DNA from: a bacterium
GTDB lineage: Bacteria > Patescibacteriota > Patescibacteriia > Patescibacteriales > GWC2-42-12
DNA length: 48,853 nt
Assembly: GCA_030655095.1 (NCBI GenBank)
Contig: JAURWF010000062.1
Location: 1 to 48,853, forward strand
Reading direction: 5' to 3'
Part shown: piece by piece, positions 17,321 through 48,746 of the stretch
Numbering within the stretch: position 1 is the first letter of the stretch
Layout: each line of letters starts with the position of its first letter
Notes under the pieces: model-generated
Databases searched by the model: none
What the model saw: only the letters and a program-made list of their open reading frames with translations
Told to the model about the DNA's origin: nothing
Made by a program: the position numbers and the translations under genes

Positions 17321-17335
17321 ACTAATATACGAATG

Positions 17336-17725
17336 TTACGAATTATACGGATCAATACGAATAATTCTTATGGGTTTTAGATATCTGTTTCGAAAATTAA
17401 CAAGTAAACCGAGTTTTATTTGGGTCTGCTGGAGATAATTCTGGATTTGGCGGTAATTTTCTTTTGTGAGCATTCTTGTATTTTTTAATTCCAATATTAT
17501 TTTATTTTCAACAATAAAATCTAAAATATTTCCTGAGTTTGAAATAGAAACCTCGCGTTTGTAAAGCATTTTCATTTCGTTAAATTTTTTCTCAATTAAA
17601 TCACCATATTGTTTTTCTCTTGCGTATTGTCCTAATTCGTTATGAACAGCAAAAAGTATTCCCGTAATAGTATAAGAAAGTTCGGGATATATAATTTTAT
17701 TTTTTGTATTTATATTCGTATCCAT
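17336..17725 (-). CDS. GxxExxY family protein (PD-(D/E)XK-like, PDDEXK_3)
   Basis: 129 aa. The sequence YPELSYTITGILFAVHNELGQYAREKQYGDLIE is typical of the GxxExxY family. Confidence 0.65.
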   Translation of the reverse strand: MDTNINTKNKIIYPELSYTITGILFAVHNELGQYAREKQYGDLIEKKFNEMKMLYKREVSISNSGNILDFIVENKIILELKNTRMLTKENYRQIQNYLQQTQIKLGLLVNFRNRYLKPIRIIRIDPYNS

Positions 17726-17762
17726 TAGTATATTAGTATAATTCGCATATTTGTATGTTTAT

Positions 17763-20169: not shown

Positions 20170-21432
20170 ATGATGACAAAAGAATTTGAGGAAAGATTAT
20201 TCTCGCGATTGCCAGCAATCGTTGAGCATTTCGGCACCCCTTTTCATATCTATGATGAAGAGGGAATTATTGAAAACGGAAAAGAATTAAAAAATCTATT
20301 TTCCGGAGTAGAGGGATTTCAGGAGTTTTTTGCAGTTAAAGCAAATCCAAATTTTGAGATATTAAAAATCATGAAAAAATTAGGATTTGGATTTGACTGC
20401 AGTTCTATCCCAGAGCTTATTCTGGCTCGTAAAGCAGGGGCGTTACCTGAAGAGATAATGTTCTCTTCAAACAACACATCCACGGCTGAGTTTATTGAGG
20501 CGACAAAAAACGGCAGTTGTTTGCTGAATCTGGATGATATCAGTATGATCAATAAGGTTCCTGCGTTTCCAGAACTAATTTGCTTTAGATATAATCCGGG
20601 CGAACGACGGACTGGAAATGAAATTATCGGGAATCCGGCAGATTCAAAATACGGAGTTCGCCATGATCAGATTGTTGAGGCTTATAAAATGGCAATGAAG
20701 CGGCAGGCAAAACGGTTCGGGCTGCATACTATGATTTGCTCCAATCAACCGGATTACACTTACATGACGAAAACCGTCAATATGTTGTTGGAAGTCGTAG
20801 AAATGGTTTCTGAAGCCTTGGGAATTAAATTTGAGTTTATCAATGTAGGCGGTGGAATTGGAATTCCATATAAACTTGATGATAAACCGTTTAATATGTC
20901 AGCATTTGCCGAAGAAGCCAAGATATTGCTGGATCAGTTTAATCAAAAGCATGGATATGCGCCAAAGTTTTTTATGGAGTCTGGCCGTTATATGGTTGGA
21001 CCTCATGGCGTATTGGTAACGAAAGTTATTAATCGTATGAGTAAGTATAAAGAATATGTTGGAGTTGATGCTTCTTGCATATCATCAATGATGCGACCAG
21101 CTATTTACTATCCTGAGGGCGGTTATCATCATATTTCAGTGTTTGGGAAAGATAATGGTCCAACTGAGAGGGTGAATGTAGTCGGGTCTGCCTGTGAAAA
21201 TAATGATCAGTTTGGCAGGGATCGTGAACTGCCAAAAATTGTTGAAGGAGATGTCGTTATTGTTCACGACACTGGTGCTCATTGTTATGTAATGGCGTCT
21301 AATTATAACGGACGGCTACGTCTACAGGAGGTGATGTTGCGTAGTAATGGTAACGTGGAATTAATCCGACGAGCAGAAACGCCTGAGGATTATTTCCGAA
21401 CGATGTTTGATTTTGAGCCAAAAACTCTTTAA
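20170..21432 (+). CDS. lysA: Diaminopimelate decarboxylase family (PLP-dependent)
   Basis: FAVKANPN (PLP lysine), GGGIGIPY, ESGRYMVGPHG and GSACENNDQF motifs. AGGAGG at 20155-20160 lies 9 nt before the ATG. Confidence 0.75.
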   Translation: MMTKEFEERLFSRLPAIVEHFGTPFHIYDEEGIIENGKELKNLFSGVEGFQEFFAVKANPNFEILKIMKKLGFGFDCSSIPELILARKAGALPEEIMFSSNNTSTAEFIEATKNGSCLLNLDDISMINKVPAFPELICFRYNPGERRTGNEIIGNPADSKYGVRHDQIVEAYKMAMKRQAKRFGLHTMICSNQPDYTYMTKTVNMLLEVVEMVSEALGIKFEFINVGGGIGIPYKLDDKPFNMSAFAEEAKILLDQFNQKHGYAPKFFMESGRYMVGPHGVLVTKVINRMSKYKEYVGVDASCISSMMRPAIYYPEGGYHHISVFGKDNGPTERVNVVGSACENNDQFGRDRELPKIVEGDVVIVHDTGAHCYVMASNYNGRLRLQEVMLRSNGNVELIRRAETPEDYFRTMFDFEPKTL

Positions 21433-21481
21433 TGCATAAATTGCAAAAGGAGAAAAAATAAAAGTTAAGGAGGTTTAAGAA

Positions 21482-22657
21482 ATGAAAGTTATTGCATCTA
21501 AAAGAGTTCAAAGTATTGGTGGATATGCTTTTGCAGAAATAGACAAAAAAGTGGCAGAGGCAAAAGCAAGAGGGGTAGATGTCATTGATTTTGGCGTTGG
21601 CGATCCGACTGATCCTACGCCAAAATTTATTAGAAATGCTTGCAAGAAAGGCGTTGACAACAGAGCCAGCTCAGGTTACCCGAGCTACATTGGTTCTTTA
21701 GAATATCGCTCAGCTATTGCTACATGGGTGGCAAATCGTTTTGGGATTGTGCTTGATCCTAAAACAGAAATTTGTTCAACAATCGGGGCTAAAGAGGGAG
21801 TATTTCATTTTCCTTTTGGGTTTGTTAACCCAGGAGATTATGTACTCTGTCCTACCCCAGGATATCCGCCGTATAGTCGTGGCACACTTTTTGCCGGAGG
21901 GATCCCTTGGTTTTATCCTCTTTTGGAAAGAAACAATTTCTTCCCAGATTTTAAAAGCATTCCAGAGGAGATTGCTAAGAAGAGTAAAATTCTTTGGCTG
22001 AATTATCCAAATAGTCCTACGGGGGAATGCGCCACAAGGGAAATATATGAGCAAGCTATTGAGTTTGCTCAGCGTTATAACATTATTATTGCTTCGGACG
22101 AGTGTTATAGCGAGATCTATTTTGGTGAAAAGCCAATTTCTATTCTTGAATTAGCTAAAGAGGGGGCGGTAGTTTTTCAGTCATTTTCTAAGCCATATAA
22201 AATGACTGGGTACAGAGTTGGTTGGGCCATGGGTGATAGCAGAATCATAGATGTTTTTAAAAAAGTGAAGACAAATTTTGATTCCGGCACACCCACATTC
22301 ATTCAGGACGCAGCTATTGTTGCCATGGAAGAGTTAACTCATGTGGAATGTGCTCGAGAAGAATATCGGAAACGTCGGGATGTCATAGTTGAAGCTCTTG
22401 TTTCGGTCGGCTTAAAGAGGTGTCAGCCAGAGGGAACTTTCTATATTTGGCAAAAAGTTCCTAAAGGAATGACTTCTGTGAAATTTGCCGAAGTACTTTT
22501 GGAACAATGCGAAATAGTAGTAACTCCTGGTGAGGCTATTTCGGAAATAGTAGCAGACGAAACAAACCCAGGGCGGGACTTTGTTCGTTTTGCTCTTGTT
22601 CCTTCTTTGGAAAGAATCAAAGAAGCTGCAGAGCGAATAAGAAATCTAAAATTTTAG
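21482..22657 (+). CDS. dapL: LL-diaminopimelate aminotransferase-like class I aminotransferase
   Basis: GGYAFAEIDKKV...DFGVGDPTDPTP, LNYPNSPTG and SFSKPYKMTGYRVGW (PLP lysine). It sits between lysA and dapB. AAGGAGG at 21467-21473. Confidence 0.65.
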   Translation: MKVIASKRVQSIGGYAFAEIDKKVAEAKARGVDVIDFGVGDPTDPTPKFIRNACKKGVDNRASSGYPSYIGSLEYRSAIATWVANRFGIVLDPKTEICSTIGAKEGVFHFPFGFVNPGDYVLCPTPGYPPYSRGTLFAGGIPWFYPLLERNNFFPDFKSIPEEIAKKSKILWLNYPNSPTGECATREIYEQAIEFAQRYNIIIASDECYSEIYFGEKPISILELAKEGAVVFQSFSKPYKMTGYRVGWAMGDSRIIDVFKKVKTNFDSGTPTFIQDAAIVAMEELTHVECAREEYRKRRDVIVEALVSVGLKRCQPEGTFYIWQKVPKGMTSVKFAEVLLEQCEIVVTPGEAISEIVADETNPGRDFVRFALVPSLERIKEAAERIRNLKF

Positions 22658-22667
22658 GAGGTGTCAG

Positions 22668-23450
22668 ATGATGATTAAGGTAATAGTAAATGGAGCTGGA
22701 GGGAGTATGGGGAGGCTAATTAGTAAATATCTGTATCCTCAAAATGATATGGATTTAGTAGATGTAGTCGATCCAAAGGGTGGTACTTTGTTACTCAAGA
22801 CAATTAAAGCATCTGTTAAAGATGCGGTTGAAAACAATTGTTGCGACTTAATAGTGGATTTCACCCAGCCTAATGCTGTAAACGCAAATGCCGAGCTTTA
22901 CTGCAAGTACAATATTCCATTTGTAATGGGCACCACTGGCGGAGACAGGGAAAAACTGGCGCAAGTTGTTAAGGACAGCAATGTTTCGGCAGTTATTGCT
23001 CCAAATATGGCAAAGCAAGTTGTAGCCTTTCAGTCCATGATGGAATATGCTGCCGAAACTTTTCCCAACGCTTTTGAAGGATTTTCCTTGGAAATTGTGG
23101 AAAGTCATCAGGAGAGTAAAAAGGATACCAGCGGTACAGCTAAAGCCATGGTGGGTTATTTTAATAAGCTGAGTATTCCTTTTGATCCAGGTCAAATTGA
23201 AATGATCCGAGATCCTGAGGCGCAAAGAGCGATGGGTATTCCTGAAGAAGATCTTGGCGGACATGGTTGGCACACTTACGATTTAGTTTCTGCTGACGAA
23301 ACGGTAAACCTGAAGTTTACGCACAATATCAACGGTCGAGTCCCATATGTTCTCGGCACGCTTGATGCCATTCGATTTCTATATAAAAAGATTCAGGAGG
23401 GATCAAAAGGAGAGGTATTTTCTATGATAGATGTCTTAAAAGGCATTTGA
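22668..23450 (+). CDS. dapB: 4-hydroxy-tetrahydrodipicolinate reductase
   Basis: VNGAGGSMGR Rossmann motif and ESHQESKKDTSGTAKA (compare the E-x-HH-x-x-K-x-D-A-P-S-G-T-A signature). AGGAGG at 22656-22661. Confidence 0.7.
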   Translation: MMIKVIVNGAGGSMGRLISKYLYPQNDMDLVDVVDPKGGTLLLKTIKASVKDAVENNCCDLIVDFTQPNAVNANAELYCKYNIPFVMGTTGGDREKLAQVVKDSNVSAVIAPNMAKQVVAFQSMMEYAAETFPNAFEGFSLEIVESHQESKKDTSGTAKAMVGYFNKLSIPFDPGQIEMIRDPEAQRAMGIPEEDLGGHGWHTYDLVSADETVNLKFTHNINGRVPYVLGTLDAIRFLYKKIQEGSKGEVFSMIDVLKGI

Positions 23451-23476: not shown

Positions 23477-23526
23477 GACAGGGGAGAAAATGGAAAAAAT
23501 TTTCCAACCCCTGTCCTTTTTTATTT
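23477..23526 (+). terminator. Rho-independent terminator after dapB
   Basis: gacagggg (23477-23484) pairs with cccctgtc (23508-23515). A T-rich run ctttttttattt follows. Confidence 0.8.
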
Positions 23527-23608
23527 AAATTCAATGAATAATAATTAAATTTTTAAAATTTGCTTTTTAAGTTAATAGTTGTTATGATAATAATCACTTA
23601 GAAAAGAG

Positions 23609-23645
23609 ATTGCCGCGTCGCTATGATTACATAGCTCCTCGCAAT
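23609..23645. repeat. Short GC-containing imperfect palindromic element
   Basis: attgc/gcaat (23609-13 and 23641-45) and gctatg/catagc (23620-25 and 23630-35) form a two-tier hairpin. It stands out in AT-rich spacer. Confidence 0.4.
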
Positions 23646-23658
23646 GACAGTGTTGTTT

Positions 23659-23785
23659 GACTTTTTTGATTTTATAGACTTTACAGACTTTTGACTTTTT
23701 TGACTTTACAGACTTTATAGACTTTACAGACTTTACAGACTTTTGACTTTTGACTTTTGACTTTACGGACTTTATGGACTTTTAA
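23659..23785. repeat. Array A: about 14 tandem GACTTT-cored words (7-9 nt period), ending 9 nt before the lepB ATG
   Basis: Units start at 23659, 23677, 23686, 23693, 23702, 23711, 23720, 23729, 23738, 23745, 23752, 23759, 23768 and 23777. Forms are gactttaca, gactttata, gactttt and gactttacg. Confidence 0.9.
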
Positions 23786-23794
23786 CTAATCCCT

Positions 23795-24358
23795 ATGCTT
23801 AAAAATTTTTTTGTTTTTGTTTTTGAATTGACAAAAGTTGTTCTTATTTCTTTAGCTATTATTATTCCTATTAGATATTTTTTAATTCAGCCATTTTATG
23901 TCAAAGGAGCTTCTATGGAGCCTAATTTTCATGATAGTGAATATTTAATTATCGATGAAATTAGTTATCGTTTTAATCAGCCAAAGAGAGGTGATATAAT
24001 AGTTTTTAAATATCCACGCAATCCGCAGGAATATTTTATTAAAAGAATTGTTGGTTTACCAAATGAAAAAGTACAAGTAAGAGATGGCGAAATTTATATT
24101 TTTAATAAAGAAAATCCATTAGGCATTAAGATAGATGAACCATATTTAGCTGATGGAGTAAAAACTAACGGATCTGACGAAGAGGTTATTAGTTTAAAAA
24201 ATGATGAATATTATGTTCTTGGCGATAATAGAAATTTTTCCAAAGATTCCCGTAGTTTTGGTCCTGTAAATAAAAGTTTTGTTGTTGGTAGAGTGTTATT
24301 GCGTGGCTGGCCGTTTGATAAAGTGAATTTATTTCCTGTTCAGCAATATAGTTTTTAG
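23795..24358 (+). CDS. lepB: Signal peptidase I
   Basis: N-terminal transmembrane helix, GASMEPNF (catalytic Ser), KRIVGLPNE (catalytic Lys) and GDNRNFSKDSR. Confidence 0.9.
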   Translation: MLKNFFVFVFELTKVVLISLAIIIPIRYFLIQPFYVKGASMEPNFHDSEYLIIDEISYRFNQPKRGDIIVFKYPRNPQEYFIKRIVGLPNEKVQVRDGEIYIFNKENPLGIKIDEPYLADGVKTNGSDEEVISLKNDEYYVLGDNRNFSKDSRSFGPVNKSFVVGRVLLRGWPFDKVNLFPVQQYSF

Positions 24359-24430
24359 TTAAAAGTCTATAAAGTCTATAAAGTCTGTAAAGTCCGTAAA
24401 GTTAAAAGTTAAAAGTTAAAAGTTTATAAA
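24359..24430. repeat. Array B: the same word family in reverse-complement orientation (AAAGTC/AAAGTT units)
   Basis: gttaaaagtc tataaagtc tataaagtc tgtaaagtc cgtaaagt taaaagt taaaagt taaaagt. Its reverse complement mirrors the 3' half of array A. Confidence 0.9.
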
Positions 24431-24445
24431 TTATAAAATTATATT

Positions 24446-27656: not shown

Positions 27657-27735
27657 AATAATGCGAATAATATTTGTAGTTTATTAATCGGTTATGTTAT
27701 AATAATGTTATTATAAAATAGTGCATTAGTCAAAG

Positions 27736-27763
27736 GACTTTACAGACTTTATAGACTTTTAAC
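27736..27763. repeat. Array C: three GACTTT words ending 7 nt before the ATG of the 560-aa surface protein
   Basis: gactttaca gactttata gacttttaac. The terminal gacttttaac box is the same as at the end of array A. Confidence 0.85.
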
Positions 27764-27770
27764 TTTTTCT

Positions 27771-29453
27771 ATGTTTAATAAATTTAGTAAAAAAAATCAT
27801 AAGATAATTATTGCTTTATTGCTTTATTGCTTTATTGCTTTTTTGTTTATTTTGATTACCCCAAATGTTTTAGCAGCAACAATTGATCCTGGACTAGAAC
27901 AGATGACAGCAACGGGTTTGTCTGATCAAGACATAAGAATAACAATCGCAAATATTATTAGGGCTGTTATTGGGTTTTTAGGAATTATTGCTGTTGGATT
28001 AGTTTTGTATGCTGGTTGGCTGTGGATGACTAGCGAGGGAGAGGAAGATAAAGTTGAGAAAGCTAAATTAATTTTGAAAAATGCTTTAATTGGTTTAATT
28101 ATTATTTTATCATCTTTTGCTATTGTATCTTTTATTTTAAATAAATTAATTGAATCAACTGCTGGTGGCGGTGGTAGTGTTGGAGGCGGACCAGGCGGTG
28201 GTGTAAGTGGCGGGATTGCTGCTTTGGGTAGTGGAATTATTGAATTTCATTATCCTGGCAAAGATCAAAAAGCTGTGCCACGAAATACTAATATATCTAT
28301 TACTTTTAAAGAGGCAATTAATCCTGCTGCTATCATAACTAATAATAAAATAAATACTAGTAATATTAAAATTTATAAAACAAAAGACGGCTTAACTGGC
28401 TCAATGGTTACTGATGTTAATGCTAGCAAAAGTGCAGATAATAAAACTTTTATTTTTGACCCTTCTCAATTTTTAGGTAGCTCTGCTGAAAATTTTTGGT
28501 ACACAGTGGCTTTATCAAAAGATATAAAAACAACAAGAGATGTGTTTGCTTTTGGTGTATTGTCGGGGTTGTTTCCTTATAGTTGGAGCTTTGAAGTAAG
28601 TACTATTGTTGACGAAACTCCGCCAAAAATTGAAAGTATTATTCCTCAACCTAGCGCTACTGAGCCTAGAAATGTTGTTATTCAGATTAATTTTGACGAA
28701 GCTATTAATTCGATGTCAGCTAGTGGCGCGACTAAAAAGGGTTTTAATAATATTGTAGTTAGCGCTTCTTCCACCGGCAATGCTAGCAGTTTAGTCGCAG
28801 GTAATTTTTATTTGTCTAACCAATATAGAACAGTTGAATTTCTTACAGAAGATAAATGTGGGGTTAATTCTTGCGGTTTAGATGTTTATTGTTTGCCTGG
28901 CAATAAAGATATATCTGTTTTAGTTAAAGCAGATGATCCTACGACCTCTCTTTACAATGGAATAGTTGATATGTCTGATAATTCTTTAGACGGTAATAAA
29001 GATGGCGTTGTGCAAGGTCCAACAGCAGATAATTATGCTTGGTTATTTAAGACTAGTAATGACATTGATACTTCTCCGCCAGTAATTACTAAAGTAAATC
29101 CAAATATAAATTCTGACGGAGCAGGTTTAAGCGCTACAGTTGAAGCTGAATTTAATAAATTAATGATGGCTAATAGTTTAAATAGCGATAGTCTTAATTT
29201 GGTTGGCACGCCAGTTATAAATTATTGGATTAGCAAGACTGATGATGCAAGCACTAGTAAAACTACTGTTATTTTTAATCACGATCAATTTAATGAGGAT
29301 AGTAGGTATTCTCCAAAAATTACTTCTGCCGTGAAAGACGTTTACCAAAATTGTTATTTTCCATGTTCAGGCGTAAATGAGACTGGTTCAAATGTACAAG
29401 GCGGTCCGTCTTGTTGTAACGGCGTGGCTAATTTAGGAGCTGTTTGCCCGTGA
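27771..29453 (+). CDS. Secreted/membrane-anchored protein: signal peptide, TrbC/VirB2-like (T4SS-pilin-like) two-helix hairpin, Gly linker, Ig-like (SbsA_Ig/Big-type) domains, Cys-rich tail
   Basis: Residues about 50-128 (IANIIRAVIGFLGIIAVGLVLYAGWLWMTSEGEEDKVEKAKLILKNALIGLIIILSSFAI) form the pilin-like hairpin. GGGGSVGGGPGGGVSGG follows. Repeated P-P-x-I-x-x-x-x-P ... F-x-E-x-(I/M) Ig-type starts are present. Confidence 0.7.
   Translation: MFNKFSKKNHKIIIALLLYCFIAFLFILITPNVLAATIDPGLEQMTATGLSDQDIRITIANIIRAVIGFLGIIAVGLVLYAGWLWMTSEGEEDKVEKAKLILKNALIGLIIILSSFAIVSFILNKLIESTAGGGGSVGGGPGGGVSGGIAALGSGIIEFHYPGKDQKAVPRNTNISITFKEAINPAAIITNNKINTSNIKIYKTKDGLTGSMVTDVNASKSADNKTFIFDPSQFLGSSAENFWYTVALSKDIKTTRDVFAFGVLSGLFPYSWSFEVSTIVDETPPKIESIIPQPSATEPRNVVIQINFDEAINSMSASGATKKGFNNIVVSASSTGNASSLVAGNFYLSNQYRTVEFLTEDKCGVNSCGLDVYCLPGNKDISVLVKADDPTTSLYNGIVDMSDNSLDGNKDGVVQGPTADNYAWLFKTSNDIDTSPPVITKVNPNINSDGAGLSATVEAEFNKLMMANSLNSDSLNLVGTPVINYWISKTDDASTSKTTVIFNHDQFNEDSRYSPKITSAVKDVYQNCYFPCSGVNETGSNVQGGPSCCNGVANLGAVCP
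27810..27841 (+). repeat. Perfect tandem repeat (attgcttt) x4 inside the signal-peptide coding region
   Basis: Copies lie at 27810-17, 27818-25, 27826-33 and 27834-41. The unit length of 8 nt is not a multiple of 3. Confidence 0.95.
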
Positions 29454-30398: not shown

Positions 30399-32105
30399 AT
30401 GAAAAAAGCAATTTTTTTATTATCGTTGGTGTTAATTTTAAGTGTGGGATTTTTTTCAACAACAACGCAAATTTTTGCTGAAAGTTTATCTAATAAATTA
30501 AAAGGGAAAATATTATTGCAAGTGGAATCAAGAGGCGAGGCTTGGTATGTTTCTCCTGCTGATGGAAAAAGATATAGTATGGGCAAGCCAAAAGATGCTT
30601 TTGATTTAATACGCAAATTAGGAATTGGCATTAGCAATGATAATTTAAAGAAAATCCAAATAGCAGATGAAAATTTAGTTGGTCTTGATAGTGATAACGA
30701 TGGTCTTTCTGATATGGCGGAAGATTCAATCGGGACAGATAAAAATAATAAAGACAGTGACGGAGATGGATATGATGATAAAAAAGAAGTAATAAATGGA
30801 TATAATCCTATCGGAGCTGGTAAAATATTAATTGATAGTAAGCTCGCTAAACAACAATCAGGAAAAATATTATTACAAGTGGAATCAAAAGGCGAGGCTT
30901 GGTATGTAAATCCGAAGAATAATCAAAGAATTTTTTTAGGCAGACCTACTGATGCTTTTAATTTAATGCGCAAATTAGGTTTGGGTATTTCTAATAATGA
31001 TTTAAGTAAAATTGTTATCCAGTCTAATGCGATAATAGTGCATTCAATTGGTATAAAAGAAGCAAAGATACGGGCAGAAAAGTTTATTAATGAAAAGTTA
31101 TTGTCATCTAATGTAACAGCTACTATTAAAAGTATTGTCTTAGAAGGTGGTTTATATAAAATTATTCTAGAAGTAGGGAATAGTGAATATACTTCTTATA
31201 TGACTAGTGATGGTAAAAAATTTTTTCAAGCAGGTACTGATTTAATTAAAGAAAAGCCTATAGAAATAAACGATTTAGATGTTTGTGATAAGATGCAGGA
31301 TCAAAGTAAAAAATATGAATGTTATTATGAAATTGCTATAGATAAACAAGATTCATCTATTTGTGATAAAATACAGAATCAAGATGATAAAGGCGAATGT
31401 TATTCTTATATTGCGGAAGCTAAACAAGATTTAACTATTTGTGATAAAATACAGAATCAAGATGATAAAGATATGTGTTATTATACAATTGTTATTATTA
31501 AACGAGATTTAGCAGGTTGTGGTAAGATACAAAGTCAAATAATTAAAGGAGGATGTTATACTAGCATAGCTGTAGTTGGGCAGGATTGTGATGAAATACA
31601 GAATCAAGATGATAAAGATATGTGTTATATGGCATATTATGGAAAAGATGTTGCTGAAAATAAAGCTAGAGATGCAAAACGTATTAGCGATATTAAACAA
31701 ATACAGACAGGCTTAGAACTATATTATAATGATATGAGTACATATCCAAACGCTACAAAAATTATTATAAAAGATCTCTGTTTGTCTGCAAACAAGGATT
31801 TAATAACAGGTAATGGATTTTATTCTTCTTGTGTTACTGGCGGTATAAAATATATGAGTCAAGTTCCAACAGCGCCATTGCCAGTTGATGGCAGTTGTAC
31901 TGCTGATAATAACCAATATATTTATCTTTCAACTAATGAAGAAGGTACCGTCATTTGTAAAACTGGAACACAACAAGCTCAATGTCAAAATTATATGTTG
32001 CAATTTTGTACAGGCGAATCTAATGGTTTAATTTCTGCAGGCTTGCATTGCGCCACTTCTAGCGGTATTTCAAATAAGGCATGTTCTTTTCCTGTTATTA
32101 AATAA
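30399..32105 (+). CDS. Secreted chimeric repeat protein (2x unknown ~50-aa domain, TSP3-like Ca-binding repeats, 5x C-x-K-I-Q-N-Q-D-D-K-x-x-C-Y repeats, C-terminal type IV pilin-like globular domain)
   Basis: Signal peptide MKKAIFLLSLVLILSVGFF. KILLQVES(R/K)GEAWYV occurs twice. DSDNDGLSD...DSDGDGYDD is present. ARDAKRISDIKQIQTGLELYYND resembles the end of the pilin alpha1 helix, but there is no prepilin leader. Confidence 0.65.
   Translation: MKKAIFLLSLVLILSVGFFSTTTQIFAESLSNKLKGKILLQVESRGEAWYVSPADGKRYSMGKPKDAFDLIRKLGIGISNDNLKKIQIADENLVGLDSDNDGLSDMAEDSIGTDKNNKDSDGDGYDDKKEVINGYNPIGAGKILIDSKLAKQQSGKILLQVESKGEAWYVNPKNNQRIFLGRPTDAFNLMRKLGLGISNNDLSKIVIQSNAIIVHSIGIKEAKIRAEKFINEKLLSSNVTATIKSIVLEGGLYKIILEVGNSEYTSYMTSDGKKFFQAGTDLIKEKPIEINDLDVCDKMQDQSKKYECYYEIAIDKQDSSICDKIQNQDDKGECYSYIAEAKQDLTICDKIQNQDDKDMCYYTIVIIKRDLAGCGKIQSQIIKGGCYTSIAVVGQDCDEIQNQDDKDMCYMAYYGKDVAENKARDAKRISDIKQIQTGLELYYNDMSTYPNATKIIIKDLCLSANKDLITGNGFYSSCVTGGIKYMSQVPTAPLPVDGSCTADNNQYIYLSTNEEGTVICKTGTQQAQCQNYMLQFCTGESNGLISAGLHCATSSGISNKACSFPVIK
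31362..31628 (+). repeat. Near-identical intragenic DNA repeats (31-42 nt) encoding the CDKIQNQDDK modules
   Basis: tgtgat(a/g)aaatacagaatcaagatgataaag starts at 31362, 31440 and 31587. Copies 2 and 3 extend to 42 nt with one mismatch. Confidence 0.9.
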
Positions 32106-32204: not shown

Positions 32205-32603
32205 ATGACTAAAATTAATGAGCAAATTAATTATTGGGAAAAATCTGCTGAGCGAAATTTAAAAACTGCTTTAAGTTTATTTAAAACTAAACATTATGAT
32301 GCTTGTCTTTTTTTCTGTCATTTAACTTTAGAAAAGCTATTAAAAGGATTAGTTGTTAAACAAATTAAAAAAGCGGCTCCGTATATTCATGACTTAGAAA
32401 GATTAACTCTCTTAATTAAATTATCATTTACAAAAGATCAAATTGAAAATATAAAAATTATTTCTGAGTTTAGTCTTGCTGGTCGGTATGATGATGAAAA
32501 GTTTGCGTTTTATAAAAAATGCACTAAAAAATATACAGAAAAATATCTCAATATTTCTAAAGAGTTATATTTATGGTTAAAAGAACAATACCAAAAAAAG
32601 TAA
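32205..32603 (+). CDS. HEPN domain protein (toxin of a HEPN/MNT pair)
   Basis: 132-aa helical protein with YWEKSAERNLKTALSLFKTKHYDACLFFCHLTLEKLLKG, typical of HEPN. It overlaps the downstream nucleotidyltransferase gene by 31 nt. Confidence 0.6.
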   Translation: MTKINEQINYWEKSAERNLKTALSLFKTKHYDACLFFCHLTLEKLLKGLVVKQIKKAAPYIHDLERLTLLIKLSFTKDQIENIKIISEFSLAGRYDDEKFAFYKKCTKKYTEKYLNISKELYLWLKEQYQKK

Positions 32604-32905
32604 AAAAAGAAATTAATAAATATATTAAAATCTTAAAGGCTGATAAATTGCCGATTAAGAAAATTATTTTATTCGGTTCTTATGCTAAAGGAGAACAACA
32701 TGAATGGAGTGACATTGATTTATGTATTATTTCTCCTAAATTTAAAGATGCCTTTGAGGCATTGCAGTATCTTTGGTTAAAAAGAAAAATTTTTGATATT
32801 CAATATGTTATTGAGCCAATTGGTTTTAGTCCAAAAGATTTTAAAGATAAATATAGCTCTCTTGTTTATGAAATAAAAACAACAGGAATTGAAATTTTAG
32901 TATAA
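32573..32905 (+). CDS. Minimal nucleotidyltransferase (MNT antitoxin of a HEPN/MNT pair)
   Basis: LFGSYAKGEQHEWSDIDLCII matches the GS-x10-D-x-D nucleotidyltransferase motif. Confidence 0.7.
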   Translation: MVKRTIPKKVKKEINKYIKILKADKLPIKKIILFGSYAKGEQHEWSDIDLCIISPKFKDAFEALQYLWLKRKIFDIQYVIEPIGFSPKDFKDKYSSLVYEIKTTGIEILV

Positions 32906-38457: not shown

Positions 38458-38509
38458 TTTGTCTGAACCACTGACAGTTTCTGAGGGGCACTGAAAATAC
38501 TGAGAATTT

Positions 38510-38544
38510 CAAATACAAATACAAATTACAAATTACAAATTAAT
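38510..38544. repeat. Array E: tandem ACAAAT/TACAAAT words upstream of the 38570 gene
   Basis: caaatacaaatacaaattacaaattacaaatta. It is preceded by three (c/t)actga words at 38470-38506. Confidence 0.85.
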
Positions 38545-39357: not shown

Positions 39358-40362
39358 ATGTTTAATATTTCTAAGCCAAAAATTAATAAAGAGATTGAGC
39401 AATTACCGGAGGATTTATCATCGGTTCAAGAAGAAGAAACAAAATTAGGTGATGATATAACTATTCATGCTATGCCAGAGCGTTTTCGTTCTAGTCATAT
39501 TAAAGTTGGTCAAGCTAAAAAAACAGGCGTTTTTATTATCGTTGCCGGTATTATTTTTTTAATTATTATTTCTGGCTTATTCTATTATTTTTTCTTTTAT
39601 AACCAATCTAAAAAATCAAATCAAGCATCTGTTGCAACTTCAACGCCTGCAGTAGAACCAGCTAAAATAGAAGTTCCAGTCAAAGAACCAGCGCAAATAG
39701 TTGCTACTACTACGGTTGTTTTGCCTAATATAGAGTCAATGGCTACTTCAACTGCTACTTCTACAGCAACTTCTACTGAAGATATTATTAATCAGCCAGT
39801 TGATTTGTCTGCTGGAATTGACAGCGATAGTGATGGGTTGACAGATAAAGAAGAAAAGATTTTTGGATCTAATCATACTGTTTTGGATTCTGATAATGAT
39901 GGTTATGATGATTTTTCAGAAGTTTTAAATGGATATAATCCAGCAGGGGCAGGAATTTTATCTATTAACAATAATTTACAAAATTATAATAATAAAACTT
40001 ATAAATATAATTTATTGTATCCATCAACTTGGAAGCAGACTACGAGTGGTGGAGATGATTCAATAGTATTTAAGGCAGAAGATGATAGTTTTATTCAAGT
40101 AATTGCTCAAAATAATAAAGAGCAGCAATTAATAAGTGATTGGTATAAACAGCAGTTTAATGTAGATTTTGTTGATCAAAATAATTTAATTACTAATAAT
40201 AACTGGAATGGAATTATTAATTCTGATAGCCTTACTACTTATTTAACGGATTCTAGTAAAAAGTATATTTTTGTTATTACTTATAATCCCGCCTCTTCAA
40301 ACACATTAAATTATCCCAATCTTTTTAAAGCAATGATTAAATCGTTCAAGATTAGTCCATAA
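39358..40362 (+). CDS. Single-pass membrane protein with TSP3-like repeats and a C-terminal domain of unknown function
   Basis: IHAMPERF motif, transmembrane helix VFIIVAGIIFLIIISGLFYYFFF, DSDSDGLTDKEE, DSDNDGYDDFSE and NGYNPAGAGIL. Confidence 0.7.
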   Translation: MFNISKPKINKEIEQLPEDLSSVQEEETKLGDDITIHAMPERFRSSHIKVGQAKKTGVFIIVAGIIFLIIISGLFYYFFFYNQSKKSNQASVATSTPAVEPAKIEVPVKEPAQIVATTTVVLPNIESMATSTATSTATSTEDIINQPVDLSAGIDSDSDGLTDKEEKIFGSNHTVLDSDNDGYDDFSEVLNGYNPAGAGILSINNNLQNYNNKTYKYNLLYPSTWKQTTSGGDDSIVFKAEDDSFIQVIAQNNKEQQLISDWYKQQFNVDFVDQNNLITNNNWNGIINSDSLTTYLTDSSKKYIFVITYNPASSNTLNYPNLFKAMIKSFKISP

Positions 40363-40610
40363 AGTCATTAGATAGTTAAAAGTCAAAAGTCCATAAAGTC
40401 ATTAGATAGTCGAAAGTCAAAAGTCCTTAAAGTCCTTAAAGTCATTTGATAGTCGAAAGTCAAAAGTCCATAAAGTCCATAAAGTCATTTGACTTTAAGG
40501 ACTTTACAGACTTTACAGACTTTACAGACTTTACAGACTTTACAGACTTTATAGACTTTACAGACTTTACAGACTTTTGACTTTATAGACTTTACAGACT
40601 TTATAGACTC
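40357..40610. repeat. Array D: about 250-bp head-to-head word array (12 AAAGTC units, centre at 40488/89, then 14 GACTTT units)
   Basis: The left arm (40357-40486) carries AAAGTC units with interspersed attagatagt/atttgatagt. The centre reads aaagtc-attt-gacttt. The right arm (40491-40610) has a mostly 9-nt period of gactttaca and ends 3 nt before the ybeY ATG. The stop codon of the upstream gene lies inside the first unit. Confidence 0.95.
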
Positions 40611-41596: not shown

Positions 41597-41645
41597 AAAA
41601 TTTTTGAAATTGTAAAAGATTATTTTTAAATTTTAAATTTTAAAT

Positions 41646-42665
41646 ATGAAATTTGTTCGAACAAAAAAACTTTTGTTTGCTAATAATAAGGGTGGAGTTG
41701 GCAAGACTACATTGGCTTTTAATACCGCTGTTAAATTTTCAGAAATGGGATACAAAACTGTTTTAATAGATTTGGATCCACAGTGTAATTTGTCCAGATT
41801 AGCGTTAGGTTTATTTGAAGAAACATTATTTTCTAACAGTCAAAAAACAATTTACACTGTTTTGGAAGGAATCATTAAAGGAGGATCTGATATTGACAGA
41901 AGCGTAAGTTTTGAAAAAATAAATAACAATAACAATCTATTCATTTTGCCAGGTAGCCTTAAATTATCTCAATACGAAAATTCATTAATCTCATCTTATG
42001 GAGAAGCAGCACAAGGAGTTGAAAGAGGTTTTTTTATTACAAGCGCGATTGATAGATTTTTAACAGAAAAAGGCTTGAATGAAGAAATTGATATTTTTAT
42101 TATTGATACATCGCCAAGTCTTAATTTATTAAATAGAGTGATATTTTTAGGATCAGATTATTTTATCACGCCTTTAATGCCCGATGCTTTTTCAGTTCAA
42201 GGTATTGAAAATTTGGGAAATACTTTTGAGGAATGGAAAGATAATTGGAAAAAAACAGCGAGAGTTTTAGCAAAAGATAAAGGGATTGCGCATAATAAAG
42301 TTTTGGATGGCGAAGGCTTGTTTATAGGTTATATAATAAATTCGTATAATCAGTATTCAAAAAAACCTATTAAAAGTAATGAAGAATGGATTGCCAAAAT
42401 TCCGAGCTTTATTAAAAAATATTTATCAGAAAAACATTGCAGAAATGGACTCGTTGAAAAATCTTGGAAATTAGAGTTAGCTTTAATTAAAGATTTTGGG
42501 CAATTATCACCATTAGCGCAAATCAAAAATAAGGCAATATTTAATCTTGATCCAACTATCGATGGTTTTGAAAATATAAAAGGAACAAGGGAAAATTTAG
42601 AACAATCACAAAAAGAATTTACTCAACTTTCAGAAAAGATTTTAAAGATATTGTTAGAATATTAG
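41646..42665 (+). CDS. ParA/MinD-superfamily ATPase with long C-terminal extension, no ParB partner in the window
   Basis: Deviant Walker A NNKGGVGKTT and IIDTSPSLN (Walker B region). 339 aa. Confidence 0.7.
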   Translation: MKFVRTKKLLFANNKGGVGKTTLAFNTAVKFSEMGYKTVLIDLDPQCNLSRLALGLFEETLFSNSQKTIYTVLEGIIKGGSDIDRSVSFEKINNNNNLFILPGSLKLSQYENSLISSYGEAAQGVERGFFITSAIDRFLTEKGLNEEIDIFIIDTSPSLNLLNRVIFLGSDYFITPLMPDAFSVQGIENLGNTFEEWKDNWKKTARVLAKDKGIAHNKVLDGEGLFIGYIINSYNQYSKKPIKSNEEWIAKIPSFIKKYLSEKHCRNGLVEKSWKLELALIKDFGQLSPLAQIKNKAIFNLDPTIDGFENIKGTRENLEQSQKEFTQLSEKILKILLEY

Positions 42666-43064: not shown

Positions 43065-43099
43065 AAATTTGTAATTTGTATTATTAATAATAATTTGTA
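43065..43099. repeat. Array F: ATTTGTA words (reverse complement of array E words) ending 5 nt before the ftsA ATG
   Basis: The reverse complement of 43066-43082 (aatacaaattacaaatt) equals 38518-38534 exactly, a 17-nt match. A third atttgta lies at 43093-43099. Confidence 0.8.
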
Positions 43100-44367: not shown

Positions 44368-44439
44368 AGGTCTTGAAATATTTTTAATTGTAGTTTAATA
44401 TAAAATTAGTTAACTGATTAACTAATTAATTATCTATAT

Positions 44440-47506: not shown

Positions 47507-47735
47507 TTTGTATTTTTTAAAAATAATTAGAAAGTTGGTATTGTTGTTAAATAGCAAGCTAAAAATAATAGTAGATATTCCTCGTCAGCTTATTGCGAGG
47601 TTTCCTTGAGGGAAAGTTTGAAAACCGCAGTGGTTTTTCAAGATAAATTTCTACAATACAGGGCAACTTGTATTATCCGCTGTAATCGGTTATAATCCAC
47701 TATATGTAGTATAGCGTTAACATTTAACTAAGTAT

Positions 47736-48746
47736 ATGGACGACATTATCAAAAAATTTGATCATCGAATAAAAAATCCTGACCCACACATCGTGATTTT
47801 TTTGACTGAGGTTGATGGTATTCGGGGTGAATTTAAATCAAGTTTAAGAATGACTCCACAGGCAATAACTAATCTTCGTAAGTCTACGCTCATTACCTCG
47901 GCCGGTGCATCTAACCGTATTGAGGGAGGAAAACTAAACGATGAAGAGGTTGAGAAGGTTATGTGTGGACTTGCAGTCTCTAAGTTTGCGGATCGTGATT
48001 CTCAAGAAGTACAGGGTTATCTTGAAACGCTTCAGAATGTTTTTGATAGTTTTCAAACTTTGCCACTTCGGGAGAGTGTAATTACTTCGCTCCATAATCA
48101 GCTTCTTAAATACTCTAATAAGGATGATACGCATCGCGGCGGTTATAAAAAGAAAGAAAATGCGGTTGGTGTTCTCGGACCGGACGGTAACGTGGCGCGG
48201 ATAATGTTTGAGACGACAAAAGCATATCTCACTCCTAAAGAAATGCAGGAGCTCGTGGATTGGACAGTTGATGCACTTGAAAAAAATCGCTTCCATCAAC
48301 TTCTTATCATCGCCAATTTCATTGTTGAGTTTTTGAAAATCCATCCGTTTGAAGATGGCAACGGGCGGCTTTCACGTGTGCTTACGAATCTTTTGCTTTT
48401 GCGTTTTGGTTATCAGTTTGTGCAGTATGTCTCACACGAGCAGATTGTTGAACGTCGTAAGGATGAATATTATATTGCACTTCGCAAATCGCAGGAGACA
48501 TTTAAGACTGATCACGACACGATCTCCCCATGGCTCAACTTTTTTCTTTCGGTCGTTAAAGAGCAAGCCACAAAAGCTCTCACATATCTCGAAGAGGAAA
48601 AAATCGAGGACATACTTTCGTCTAAGCAATATGAGGTATGGAAATACCTATCAAGTGTCGAGGAAGCGGCTCCTGGTGAAATCGTTAAAGCGACAGACAT
48701 TGCGCTTGGCACAGCAGGCTGTCTAAAAAGCCCTTTAACAATTTAA
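47736..48746 (+). CDS. Fic family protein (AMPylase-type) with N-terminal inhibitory motif; the C-terminus is suspect
   Basis: HPFEDGNGRLSR active-site loop and SNRIEG, which matches (S/T)xxxE(G/N). The last 11 codons lie inside the terminal inverted repeat, so the real C-terminus may differ. Confidence 0.8.
   Translation: MDDIIKKFDHRIKNPDPHIVIFLTEVDGIRGEFKSSLRMTPQAITNLRKSTLITSAGASNRIEGGKLNDEEVEKVMCGLAVSKFADRDSQEVQGYLETLQNVFDSFQTLPLRESVITSLHNQLLKYSNKDDTHRGGYKKKENAVGVLGPDGNVARIMFETTKAYLTPKEMQELVDWTVDALEKNRFHQLLIIANFIVEFLKIHPFEDGNGRLSRVLTNLLLLRFGYQFVQYVSHEQIVERRKDEYYIALRKSQETFKTDHDTISPWLNFFLSVVKEQATKALTYLEEEKIEDILSSKQYEVWKYLSSVEEAAPGEIVKATDIALGTAGCLKSPLTI

Follow-up and report, generated by a model that had tools for sequence, protein, structure and literature searches.

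The GACTTT-word arrays that bracket lepB in a patescibacterial contig are probably orphan arms of cassettes resembling rRNA intervening sequences

The window, by which we mean the whole 48,853-nt stretch of patescibacterial DNA that was analysed, carries the signal peptidase gene lepB between dapB and hisS, with an array of short tandem words on either side of it (Table 1). Homologues of LepB at 86% identity exist in Patescibacteria; an exact-sequence look-up of the window LepB gave no record. After dapB we found a terminator-like hairpin, which was not listed by the scan because its loop is longer than 8 nt and which putatively separates dapB from the lepB transcription unit. It is followed by a promoter-like motif that lies upstream of array A and that is kept upstream of lepB in the window and in relatives L113, L121, L124, L127 and L128. 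The distance from this motif to the lepB ATG is 206 nt in the window versus 43-144 nt in relatives. Neither sequence reading nor the region scan gave a terminator between array B and hisS, and the window contains no known RNA families (Rfam), rRNA or tRNAs.

Table 1. Coordinates of the arrays and of neighbouring features in the window
Feature	Position	Strand	Description
Different-word cassette	17321..17762	-	Same architecture with other words; GxxExxY / PD-(D/E)XK gene as cargo
Terminator-like hairpin	23478..23530	+	GACAGGGG...CCCCTGTC then T-run, after dapB; read from sequence
Promoter-like motif	23563..23591	+	TTGCTT-17 nt-TATGAT, TGT in front; promoter role presumed
Array A	23659..23786	+	14 GACTTT words in 7- and 9-nt units; right-arm type, inside presumed lepB 5' leader
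lepB	23795..24358	+	Signal peptidase I, 187 aa; Pfam Peptidase_S26, E = 3.5e-44
Array B	24358..24430	-	Left-arm type, AAAGTC on + strand; between lepB and hisS
Array C	27733..27765	+	3 GACTTT units ending GACTTTTAAC; 5 nt before ATG at 27771
Hairpin D, left arm	40354..40490	-	12 AAAGTC words; 34/43-nt higher-order repeat
Hairpin D, right arm	40491..40609	+	13 GACTTT words; ends 4 nt before ybeY ATG (40614)
Arm word units in RNA form			GACUUUACA / UGUAAAGUC

The exact GACTTT words of array A span 23659-23782 and belong to 9-nt units, in which GACTTT is followed by AYA, ACG or ATG, and to 7-nt units of the form GACTTTT. The head of the array is GACTTTTAAC, which runs to 23786 and is followed by TAA, leaving a gap of 8 nt to the lepB ATG; counted from an earlier end coordinate, 23785, the gap is 9 nt. 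Array B begins on the G of the lepB TAG stop codon, so that its head shares one base with the stop, and consists of 4 AAAGTC units and then 4-5 degenerate AAAGTT heptamers up to about 24430. From its tail to the hisS ATG (24446) there are 15 nt. Tandem Repeats Finder called both arrays with a period of 9 (14.7 and 8.3 copies) and also reported perfect period-7 sub-arrays within them, and inverted-repeat pairs of 38-51 nt are 84-90% complementary. GACTTT occurs 71 times in the window versus 30.7 ± 5.3 times in shuffles, none of 100 shuffles reaching 71, and 46 of these 71 words fall in four arrays that together occupy about 0.5 kb. The mirror-image arrays noticed around lepB in the preliminary description are therefore real and as described there. 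When the RNA of 23650-24440 was folded, A was paired with B in both the minimum-energy and the centroid structure (z = -6.7), with a duplex of 77 pairs and -81.4 kcal/mol, which upholds the proposal that the two can form a long imperfect stem.

Two further GACTTT sites lie in the window, at 27733-27765 and 40354-40609, and had been missed earlier. Array C is a solo arm that has no partner. The arms of site D form one long gene-less hairpin of 251 nt (-94.9 kcal/mol, z = -12.3), and its fold is more stable for the antisense than for the sense strand (-107 versus -92 kcal/mol). The first unit of its left arm, AGTCCATAA, supplies the final two sense codons and the stop of the gene upstream, whose product ends in ..FKISP in the window versus ..FKIWN or ..FKVVK in relatives. 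By this comparison, the hairpin has rewritten the end of a host gene's coding sequence. The spacer before ybeY measures 3 nt in L218, is 53 nt long with other words in L213-217, and holds the 251-nt GACTTT hairpin in the window. The window also carries a cassette of the same architecture that is built from different words. Its gene (17336-17725, 129 aa) belongs to Pfam PDDEXK_3 and NCBIfam TIGR04256 and has TACGAAT-type words upstream and ATTCGTA words downstream. The tandem-repeat rows of this cassette lie at 17326-17362 and 17711-17756, and it fits tightly between two host genes of one orientation.

We found that the complementarity of A and B is generic to the word family and not special to the pair at lepB. 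The pairing energy of A per base pair is -1.12 with the left arm of D (40354-40490) and -1.06 with B, and the right arm of D likewise pairs with B at the same energy per pair as A does; only the order of unit types is common. The suggestion that the bracket is a dedicated device for lepB does not stand, since the same arrays occur elsewhere, arms of the family pair with an adjacent arm and not across a host gene, and A pairs with B no better than with an unrelated arm of the family. It is more probable that the bracket arose incidentally, from two elements that are neighbours, than that it evolved to serve lepB, an ordinary, short host gene that happens to have an arm on either side.

Scanning a genome collection with the exact pattern GACTTTAYAGACTTTAYAGACTTT gave more than 112 stretches, which is a lower bound. 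The 80 loci listed comprise about 48 from Bacteroidota, 25 from Patescibacteria (Candidate Phyla Radiation, CPR) of about 14 lineages, 3 from 'Gammaproteobacteria' MAGs and 1 from Oscillatoria. Human-gut isolates of Bacteroides and Odoribacter carry arrays, and the sources include one or more cultured isolates, Odoribacter sp. AF15-53 (L016) being one. The local GC content of array loci ranges from 28% to 60% and the inter-word spacers are the same throughout (ACA 189, ATA 142, ATG 68, C 48, ACG 34, T 23). Arrays A, B, C and D use the units of these more than 112 outside loci, namely tandem units of 7-9 nt with a core of (G/A/T)ACTTT.

Among the matches listed, 158 of 170 arrays are intergenic. 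Their heads are regular and their tails degenerate, and the median distance from the head to the stop codon of a convergent gene is 5 nt. In the 79 solo arrays the head was nearer the coding sequence in 61 and the tail in 18 (p = 1.3e-6; medians 8 versus 71 nt), and heads also adjoin a tRNA gene (L014) and a tmRNA gene (L023). Where two arrays are adjacent, AAAGTC precedes GACTTT in 26 pairs and follows it in 4. These counts across genomes show that the arrays are non-random and oriented to gene boundaries, a point on which the preliminary description had turned. The arrays of the window are placed in the same polar, intergenic way, with the heads of A, B, C and both arms of D adjoining or overlapping start or stop codons. 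The tail-to-tail order of AAAGTC and then GACTTT is found at 40354-40609 and not at lepB, where the order is GACTTT, lepB, AAAGTC. Neither A nor B has an adjacent partner arm; they are solo arms of two elements, and solo arms and gene-less hairpins are the commoner forms of the family.

Collapse during assembly is unlikely, as the arrays lie inside contigs with unique flanks and recur in independent assemblies and in a cultured isolate. A CRISPR array was rejected on the grounds that the units are contiguous, with variable spacers of only 1-3 nt. In relatives, arrays coincide with contig ends.

At other loci the same arms enclose a small gene. This gene belongs to PF05635/TIGR02436, the four-helix-bundle, 23S rRNA intervening-sequence (IVS) or Avd-like family, in 6 of 112 fetched loci (L002, L005, L015, L020, L089 and L099), and all six PF05635 genes in the pattern loci are flanked by arrays. 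The small genes of L002 and L020 match PF05635 at an E of about 1e-33 and also match TIGR02436. In Bacteroidota, Cyanobacteria and Patescibacteria, few small proteins that lack a characterised function are commoner than those of this family, and to our knowledge the family is known only from rRNA IVSs and as the Avd partner of diversity-generating retroelements. PF05635 proteins are Avd-like and pentameric (PMC10053308), and PDB entries 2GSC and 2RLD have 5 chains each. In rRNA IVSs with an S23p (PF05635) frame, terminal inverted repeats give a stem that is cut by RNase III (PMC4990558).

We compared 80 metagenomic loci with homologues of the same PF05635 subfamily (54-75% identity). The 120 nt upstream of the gene contain on average 3.94 AAAGT versus 0.40 ACTTT, and the 120 nt downstream 3.51 ACTTT versus 0.32 AAAGT, the background being 0.25. 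At least 10 complementary 6-mers were found between the two flanks in 56 of 72 scorable loci, versus direct sharing in 12 of 72, and the flanks of PF05635 cassettes form duplexes of -40.6 kcal/mol versus -23.9 kcal/mol for shuffles. The word itself co-varies between the arms, as AAAGTT/AACTTT, AACGTC/GACGTT, CTAAGT/ACTTAG and GTCCAA/TTGGAC. The cassette is co-oriented with both of its neighbours at 39 of 55 loci. As for membership of defence systems, the cargo proteins gave only marginal PADLOC matches. A search of the literature on the array strings and the cargo families found no description of these arrays, and the link between word arrays and PF05635 genes appears to be undescribed so far.

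The lepB-hisS spacer of relatives carries elements of the same kind. In L124-126 it holds a PF05635/bAvd gene with TATGAAT/ATTCATA arms and in L128 a gene-less TCTAAAT/ATTTAGA hairpin. The relatives with 86% identity (L113-120) have only AAAGTT heptamers there, which are polymorphic between strains; AAAGTT heptamers directly after the lepB stop are common to these relatives and the window. None of the relatives sampled has array A upstream of lepB. Compared in this way, the spacers show lineage-specific gain and loss of arrays. The likeness to the stems that flank rRNA IVSs, proposed when the arrays were first noticed, proves apt, in that the same arrays elsewhere are arms around a PF05635 gene and one relative has such a cassette in the lepB-hisS spacer itself.

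Our data suggest that A and B are very likely orphan, that is gene-less, arms of this repeat-cassette family. A complete cassette occupies the spacer between two host genes. Its left arm is made of short tandem words, in the present case [Y][R]TAAAGTC or AAAAGTC, its right arm of the complementary words, GACTTTA[Y]A or GACTTTT, and a small gene may lie between the two. The arms point outward, reaching and sometimes entering the adjacent stop and start codons. If the arms are transcribed, they may pair in the transcript as in rRNA IVSs and loop out whatever lies between them, and the long double-stranded stem so formed would be cleavable by RNase III. Looping out and cutting of the stem would allow the insertion to sit in an operon with little harm. 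At lepB, the complete reading frame would then lie in a loop closed by A and B, and the lepB/hisS junction would be marked for processing. We propose only tentatively, by analogy with rRNA IVSs, that the activity that matters is RNA pairing with subsequent cutting by RNase III, and it seems to us somewhat doubtful. Taken as a whole, the account of A and B as orphan arms of IVS-like cassettes that work in this manner is the one we lean towards, by a modest preference.

Several observations bear on how far the cassette account reaches. Neither jackhmmer on all ORFs nor tblastn to an E of 100 detected a PF05635 gene or a remnant of one in the 48.8-kb window, so the link to this family at lepB rests on family resemblance and on the spacers of relatives. 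The gene was present in only 6 of the 112 pattern loci, and the arrays may therefore be primary, with small genes that settled secondarily where the arms meet; the outward geometry is identical on either strand and so cannot tell which came first. Since most arrays are solo and a solo arm has no local hairpin, pairing is not the whole story. Against selection at the level of RNA, the strand test of G-U wobbles versus A-C mismatches gave 43 versus 29 of 72 loci (p = 0.13, not significant) and was mixed for gene-less hairpins, and site D has the better fold as antisense. None of the first 40 of the 80 PF05635 loci lies in rRNA, and one neighbours a tRNA; the tie to classical IVSs consists of the protein family and the architecture only. 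The ACTTT core is kept across phyla beyond the needs of base pairing, which hints at a sequence-specific recognition that lies outside the cassette model.

A bolder version of the cassette account would take the arrays and small genes to be self-propagating, previously unrecognised 'spacer intervening sequences'. The pentameric Avd-like protein would recognise the tandem ACUUU/ACTTT words of its own arms, and the GxxExxY nuclease would take the role of recogniser in sister cassettes. The element would spread between phyla into the spacers of essential operons, its arms extending outward by one unit at a time as far as the adjacent stop and start codons or into them. The gene-less arrays, which number in the hundreds and include those around lepB, would stand to it as non-autonomous offspring, like REPINs to RAYT genes. 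We regard all of these parts holding together as unlikely. If they did, this would be the first function of PF05635 outside diversity-generating retroelements.

Tandem mRNA sites for S1, a cold-shock protein, CsrA or a similar post-transcriptional factor, or stop-rich buffers beside start and stop codons, would make the arrays cis-regulatory leaders and trailers of host genes, with PF05635 genes merely settling in the same spacers. Array heads within a few nt of start and stop codons are what such a role would predict, and TAACTGA repeats, for which the same role was proposed, obey the same placement rule (PMC4679880). The heads end in TTTTAACTAA, and no other word is as enriched as AACTAA in the 35 nt that precede start codons in the window (8 of 43 genes versus 1.0 expected); one TAACTGA precedes the start codon at 44440. 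Each 9-nt unit of the left arm contains TAA, and the conservation of the ACTTT core across phyla would also fit. However, GACUUU stands before starts and AAAGUC after stops, and a single RNA-binding factor cannot explain both of these opposite sequences. Arrays also adjoin tRNA and tmRNA genes, the word is fully replaceable as long as the arms stay complementary, and at one and the same essential gene some close relatives have an array and others lack it. On this evidence, a regulatory role of this kind is improbable. That genes preceded by arrays have no Shine-Dalgarno motif is true and uninformative; the missing motif is not distinctive because only 5 of the 43 window genes have one and 38 do not.

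Alternatively, the arrays could act as DNA, as the ends of a non-autonomous mobile element of the MITE or REPIN kind that is moved or cooperatively bound by the protein of a master copy, for which the pentameric four-helix-bundle protein and the PD-(D/E)XK nuclease are candidates. Cooperative binding of a protein to the arrays is possible. The family is patchy among relatives and spans phyla, with cargo proteins that are 65-73% identical, and gene-less copies far exceed gene-carrying ones, as REPINs do RAYT genes. The second cargo family, that of the GxxExxY nuclease, has the same architecture in the window. Conservation of the word core beyond the needs of pairing, the lack of a strand bias in the test of RNA pairing and the frequent breaks of relatives' contigs at such spacers point the same way. 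Against this, no transposase or recombinase was associated with arrays among the adjacent genes and loci examined, and four-helix-bundle proteins have no known catalytic activity. Comparison of filled and empty spacers showed no visible target-site duplication, though turnover of the arms could have erased traces. Among 2.9 million viral contigs the exact pattern gave only 4 matches (the window not among them), so no vector is evident. In L213-217 the words look as if they had started from the sequence at the local stop codon, which speaks for growth in situ and not for insertion. We give an element of this sort a low probability.

Functionless minisatellites, in which slippage would expand words in spacers until selection acts at gene boundaries and template switching at quasi-palindromes would keep neighbouring inverted arrays complementary, are less probable still. 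They would account for the fast turnover of units between paralogous copies and strains, the higher-order 34/43-nt repeats within site D, the degenerate tails and regular heads, the two host-gene codons overwritten by array sequence, and the arrays that differ or are missing in close relatives. They leave unexplained the consistent outward polarity and the tight tie to one PF05635 subfamily, and independent slippage would not yield an identical 6-nt word with identical spacers both in Bacteroidota (up to 60% GC) and in Patescibacteria (28% GC).

Finally, we think it very unlikely that the embedded TTGACT words serve as stacked -35 boxes, with A as a lepB promoter and B as an antisense promoter, an idea raised at the outset: TTGACT arises wherever a 7-nt unit follows another unit, a TTGACT-17 nt-TTTTAA stretch sits 8-9 nt before the ATG and the scan gives two minus-strand sites inside B, but the scan gave no plus-strand promoter-like site inside A, the sites of the region (11 in total versus 6.0 ± 2.4 in shuffles, about 2 standard deviations above expectation) make no use of the TTGACT words on the lepB strand, the promoter-like motif conserved in relatives precedes A, most of the family's arrays have 9-nt units only and no TTGACT, and many arrays face stop codons.

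If PF05635/TIGR02436 proteins travel with complementary tandem-word arms into mRNA spacers, these proteins gain a concrete nucleic-acid partner, and the arrays in human-gut Bacteroides and Odoribacter isolates mean that a tractable system exists. A common logic may link the arrays to the unexplained oriented TAACTGA heptamer repeats. In practical terms, arrays break metagenomic contigs, can rewrite the last codons of host genes and could be wrongly taken for promoters, terminators or regulatory leaders. For lepB itself the message is modest, the bracket being probably a by-product, though RNA processing of the lepB-hisS transcript may follow from it.

Among the closest known systems is the rRNA IVS with an S23p/PF05635 frame of Leptospira and Coxiella burnetii (PMC4990558), which shares with complete cassettes the family of the cargo protein. 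Both are tolerated inside an essential transcript, occur in versions with and without the reading frame, and have a sporadic distribution with the look of horizontal acquisition. The rRNA IVSs lie in helix 9, 25 or 45 of 23S rRNA, whereas the word cassettes lie in spacers of mRNA between protein, tRNA and tmRNA genes. The Coxiella stem is a unique 28-bp inverted repeat, whereas the arms described here are made of tandem 7-9-nt words over 30-140 nt. Unlike the ORF-carrying rRNA IVSs, the arms of the window enclose lepB or nothing, with no PF05635 gene, and RNase III cleavage, shown for rRNA IVSs, is only putative for the word arrays.

REP/REPIN sequences with their RAYT genes and the Correia-type MITEs of Neisseria are palindromes of unique sequence, with many gene-less copies near gene ends and a smaller number on either side of a small gene. 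Transcribed together with the genes next to them, they fold into hairpins. RNase III acts on Correia elements, and the master genes of REPINs encode a tyrosine transposase-like enzyme. The word arrays are similar in having many short, gene-less inverted-repeat copies in spacers and few with a small gene. They differ in that tandem words replace the palindrome and a small helical bundle the transposase-type master, with no target-site duplication seen. The STRR sequences of cyanobacteria are tandem heptanucleotide words in spacers with no established function. Like the arrays they are found in the spacers of certain phyla; the words differ, and we know of no description of outward-pointing inverted pairing or of a cargo gene for them.

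In their placement the arrays resemble the TAACTGA heptamer repeats of Beggiatoaceae, Cyanobacteria and Bacteroidetes (MacGregor 2015, PMC4679880). Those repeats are oriented forward to start codons, the largest class ending 1 nt upstream and mostly without a ribosome-binding site, and sometimes stand reversed just after a stop codon (PMC4679880). Both kinds consist of short tandem words that are nearly all intergenic, share one word among distant phyla that include Bacteroidetes, change in copy number by whole units between strains and have no established function. Arrays A and C and the right arm of D have the same orientation to start codons and likewise stop a few nt short of a start without a ribosome-binding site. 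The word itself, GACTTT plus a spacer, differs, and only the array heads, which end in TAACTAA, resemble TAACTGA. Inverted pairs make up 1 of 170 sets of TAACTGA repeats, and a term search of that paper returned no mention of a four-helix-bundle gene or an intervening-sequence protein (PMC4679880). Paired inverted arms and the association with PF05635 are what define the word arrays, unlike the TAACTGA repeats.

The preliminary description placed lepB between inverted arrays of GACTTT-cored words, and direct reading of the sequence agrees. Array A (GACTTT words) ends in GACTTTTAAC at 23786, 8 nt upstream of the lepB ATG (23795). Array B (AAAGTC words) lies between lepB and hisS and reads GTTAAAAGTC TATAAAGTC TATAAAGTC TGTAAAGTC CGTAAAGT, followed by AAAAGTT heptamers to ~24430. 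Each array was called by Tandem Repeats Finder, and an inverted-repeat search returned arms of 38-51 nt with 84-90% complementarity. Unit types succeed one another identically in both: three of 7 nt, one ACG unit, A[CT][AG] units and finally TTTTAACTAA. This points to shared ancestry or gene conversion. The lepB gene is short, with a right-type arm (GACTTT words) on its upstream side and a left-type arm (AAAGTC words) on its downstream side.

Word arrays and other repeats in the window
Feature	Position	Strand	Content
Array A	23659-23782		14 exact GACTTT words; 9-nt units GACTTTACA/ATA/ACG/ATG and 7-nt units GACTTTT
Array B	24358 to ~24430		First base is the G of the lepB TAG stop codon
Three-unit array	27733-27765		Ends in GACTTTTAAC, 5 nt before the ATG at 27771
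Site D spacer, before ybeY	40354-40609		251 nt; 12 AAAGTC words, then directly 13 GACTTT words
GxxExxY cassette	17321-17762	minus	129-aa PD-(D/E)XK gene at 17336-17725
Other short tandem words in spacers	38505-38542, 43066-43080, 41624-41654		CAAATTA/TACAAAT, complement AATTTGT, TTTTAAA
8-nt repeat TTATTGCT	27808-27851		5.6 copies, N-terminal region of Big_5/pilin-like ORF 27771-29453
78-nt tandem repeat	31282-31538		~3 copies, within 568-aa ORF 30399-32105
Window ends	2-141 / 48713-48852		Perfect 140-nt inverted repeat, offset one base

GACTTT occurs 71 times in the window, compared with 30.7 +/- 5.3 in shuffled sequence. Nor are the arrays confined to lepB: 46 of the 71 words fall in four places, and two of these are away from lepB. 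Every GACTTT run in the window is directed at, and touches, a neighbouring gene. At site D, a gene-less hairpin, the AAAGTC words start inside the stop codon of the upstream gene and the GACTTT words end 4 nt before the ybeY ATG; the spacer folds as a single hairpin (-94.9 kcal/mol, z = -12.3). As the preliminary description proposed, A and B pair when 23650-24440 is folded as RNA, in the centroid structure as well as the minimum-energy one (z = -6.7), and the A/B duplex has 77 pairs (-81.4 kcal/mol). This complementarity is generic: per base pair it is the same when A is matched with the left arm at site D, or B with the right arm there. Neither A nor B has an adjacent partner arm, and no PF05635 gene or remnant was found in the window.

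PF05635 (TIGR02436), the 23S rRNA intervening-sequence or Avd-like four-helix-bundle family, is the cargo of complete cassettes in other genomes. At four loci (L002, L005, L020 and L099) outward-pointing arms 340-430 nt apart enclose a small gene, and the nearest solved structures of its protein are 2GSC and 2RLD, both five-chain entries. All six PF05635-type genes among 112 loci are flanked by arrays, and the cargo proteins are 65-73% identical between Bacteroidales and Patescibacteria. As an independent sample we scanned metagenomes with an alignment of the cargo proteins and obtained 80 loci of the same subfamily (54-75% identity). The 120 nt upstream of the cargo gene hold a mean of 3.94 AAAGT and 0.40 ACTTT, and the 120 nt downstream hold 3.51 ACTTT and 0.32 AAAGT, against a background of 0.25 per 120 nt. 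At least three AAAGT were present upstream in 47/68 loci and at least three ACTTT downstream in 41/68; the reverse pattern occurred in only 3/68. The outward-arm geometry is identical on either strand, so what it establishes is that both arms face away from the cargo, not whether arms or cargo came first. The cassette and both its neighbours share one orientation in 39 of 55 cases.

The two arms of a cassette are complementary and co-vary. The flanking words differ in first base (GACTTT, AACTTT, TACTTT) and in spacer, and in some cassettes the word is wholly swapped in both arms together (AACGTC/GACGTT, CTAAGT/ACTTAG, GTCCAA/TTGGAC). At least ten complementary 6-mers are found between the flanks in 56/72 loci, versus direct sharing in 12/72, and the arm-arm duplex energy averages -40.6 kcal/mol compared with -23.9 in shuffles. 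A second cassette type occurs within the window, where a gene matching PDDEXK_3 and the TIGR04256 'GxxExxY protein' family directly abuts a co-oriented gene on each side, with TACGAAT-type words upstream and four ATTCGTA words downstream; these inverted arrays partly overlap the ends of the gene. The architecture is therefore common to at least two unrelated small-gene families. Arrays A and B belong to the GACTTT word-array family, and in all likelihood they are orphan arms of its cassettes.

Searching one genome per species for exact matches to GACTTTAYAGACTTTAYAGACTTT gave >112 stretches. Among the 80 matches listed, ~48 were from Bacteroidota (Bacteroides, Rikenellaceae, an Odoribacter isolate and others), 25 from Patescibacteria (~14 named lineages), 3 from 'Gammaproteobacteria' MAGs and 1 from Oscillatoria; in viral contigs the pattern was nearly absent (4 matches). 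Local GC at array loci ranges from 28% to 60%, yet words and inter-word spacers are identical (ACA 189, ATA 142, ATG 68, C 48, ACG 34, AAG 24, T 23). Left and right arms alternate in series, or GACTTT is mixed with GAAGTC and TCGCTTT, in L105 (4830-5360), L099 (4206-5060) and L095 (5293-5433), which shows higher-order amplification of whole hairpins.

The arrays are polar with respect to genes. A simple ORF call places 158 of 170 between genes. We call the 3' end of a GACTTT run its head; the median distance from the head to a convergent gene's stop codon is 5 nt (interquartile range -1.5 to 10.5), and ~91 nt separate the tail from the next gene. Among solo arrays flanked by genes on either side (n = 79), the head was nearer the gene than the tail in 61 versus 18 (p = 1.3e-6; median distances 8 and 71 nt), in keeping with the earlier expectation of non-random orientation. 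Heads finish in a truncated unit (GACTA, GACTTA), the opposite strand of which often provides the neighbour's TAG or TAA stop. Arrays also adjoin a tRNA gene (L014) and a tmRNA gene (L023), so the boundary respected is any functional gene end rather than a codon specifically. Neighbouring pairs run AAAGTC then GACTTT in 26 cases and in the reverse order in only 4, three of them in one alternating block and the fourth the lepB pair.

We then compared orthologous spacers between the window, which comes from a Patescibacterium, and its relatives. The closest LepB on record is 86% identical to that of the window, and in these relatives (L113-L120) a different, divergent gene lies upstream of lepB and the array is absent there. 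Strong AGGAGG ribosome-binding sites occur in consecutive genes only in the three that end with dapB (20170-23450), the genome otherwise lacking such sites, and this block may have been horizontally acquired; a terminator-like hairpin can be read after dapB, further upstream than array A. A promoter-like motif, TTTG(C/T)C-17 nt-TAT(A/G)AT, is conserved upstream of lepB; its distance to the ATG is 206 nt in the window and 43-144 nt in relatives. Since the motif is upstream of A, the array falls within the presumed lepB 5' leader, and the reading of the arrays as promoter clusters carrying -35 boxes is not supported. Between motif and array lies a GC-rich stretch of 66 nt (23593-23658) with a small imperfect hairpin (-12.7 kcal/mol), no Rfam match and no counterpart found in relatives' lepB leaders.

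In the lepB-hisS spacer, L113-L120 carry AAAGTT[A/T] heptamers, four or five in number, which follow immediately on the stop codon and are polymorphic between strains. Beyond them lies a different palindromic element (TTTTGTCATTCCCGTGAAAACGGGAATCCAGGAG...) with a 21-nt tandem array, where contigs often end. That element also follows ybeY in L213-L217, the 21-nt array having 1 to 4 or more copies between strains, and a motif resembling it, CGGGAATCCAGGGGTGAGTAGTAGAAAG, lies near the window start (~150-180). At 73% identity, L124-126 have a PF05635/bAvd gene here with TATGAAT... / ...ATTCATA arms flush to both neighbours; L128 has a gene-less TCTAAAT/ATTTAGA hairpin and L127 a small hairpin only. 

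The spacer before ybeY is 3 nt in L218, 53 nt in L213-217 and a 251-nt GACTTT hairpin in the window. The 53-nt spacer consists of GGAATTAG GAAGTAG GAACCAG GAATTAG, the first copy covering the upstream gene's last codons and TAG stop, and looks as if it was seeded from local stop-codon sequence. In the window, unit AGTCCATAA took over the upstream gene's last two codons and stop (..FKISP* vs ..FKIWN*, ..FKVVK*). Elements of this kind recur in both spacers, and gain, loss and remodelling of arrays take place within a clade of genus level; the turnover is lineage specific. The AAAGTT heptamers of array B are the older part; between them and the stop codon the window, unlike the relatives, has an insertion of four AAAGTC units. 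Across the family, units are regular toward the head and degenerate toward the tail. Both observations suggest that arrays grow at the end nearest the gene.

Carrying word arrays is a general trait of the spacers in this genome. The window's genes are non-viral, ordinary housekeeping genes of Patescibacteria. Overlapping adjacent HEPN domain protein and nucleotidyltransferase genes (32205-32905) are typical of a toxin-antitoxin pair. The repeat at the window ends is either genuine, as a terminal inverted repeat or an element repeated at each end of the contig, or an artefact of assembly.

In Leptospira and Coxiella, rRNA intervening sequences carry a PF05635 (S23p) reading frame; the inverted repeats at their termini pair into a stem, and the sequences are excised by RNase III (PMC4990558). 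The Avd protein of diversity-generating retroelements is a homologue of PF05635 (PMC10053308). By the same route, the arms would pair in the transcript and loop out the insert, and as an RNase III substrate would allow the element to be tolerated inside operons. Around lepB, pairing would loop the whole reading frame and mark the lepB/hisS junction for processing. We rate RNA pairing followed by RNase III as somewhat less likely than not to be the relevant activity, because G-U wobbles show no significant strand bias (43 vs 29 loci, p = 0.13), the site D hairpin folds better as antisense RNA, most arrays are solo and the ACTTT core is conserved. This conservation exceeds the needs of pairing and points to some sequence-specific recognition.

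The arrays might instead be host regulatory leaders or trailers, as was proposed for TAACTGA heptamers (PMC4679880). The array head ends in AACTAA, and no word is more enriched than this one in the 35 nt before starts (8/43 genes vs 1.0 expected; for example 23783-23788, 44413-44430 and 47715-47730), with its reverse complement found once. A Shine-Dalgarno-like motif precedes only 5/43 window genes, and the spacer before 44440 reads TTAACTGATTAACTAATTAAT, like the TAACTGA repeats. Alternatively, the arrays may be DNA-level mobile or protein-bound ends, as in REPIN elements with RAYT genes, or functionless minisatellites.

Among the papers searched, none gives these array strings or describes PF05635 genes enclosed by word-array arms. 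Intervening sequences whose termini are inverted repeats are already known, as are oriented intergenic heptamers; the TAACTGA heptamers obey the same orientation rule and partly share the phyletic range of the GACTTT arrays (PMC4679880). What appears new is the combination of tandem-word arms, optional PF05635/GxxExxY cargo, placement in mRNA spacers, one word conserved across phyla and many orphan arms.
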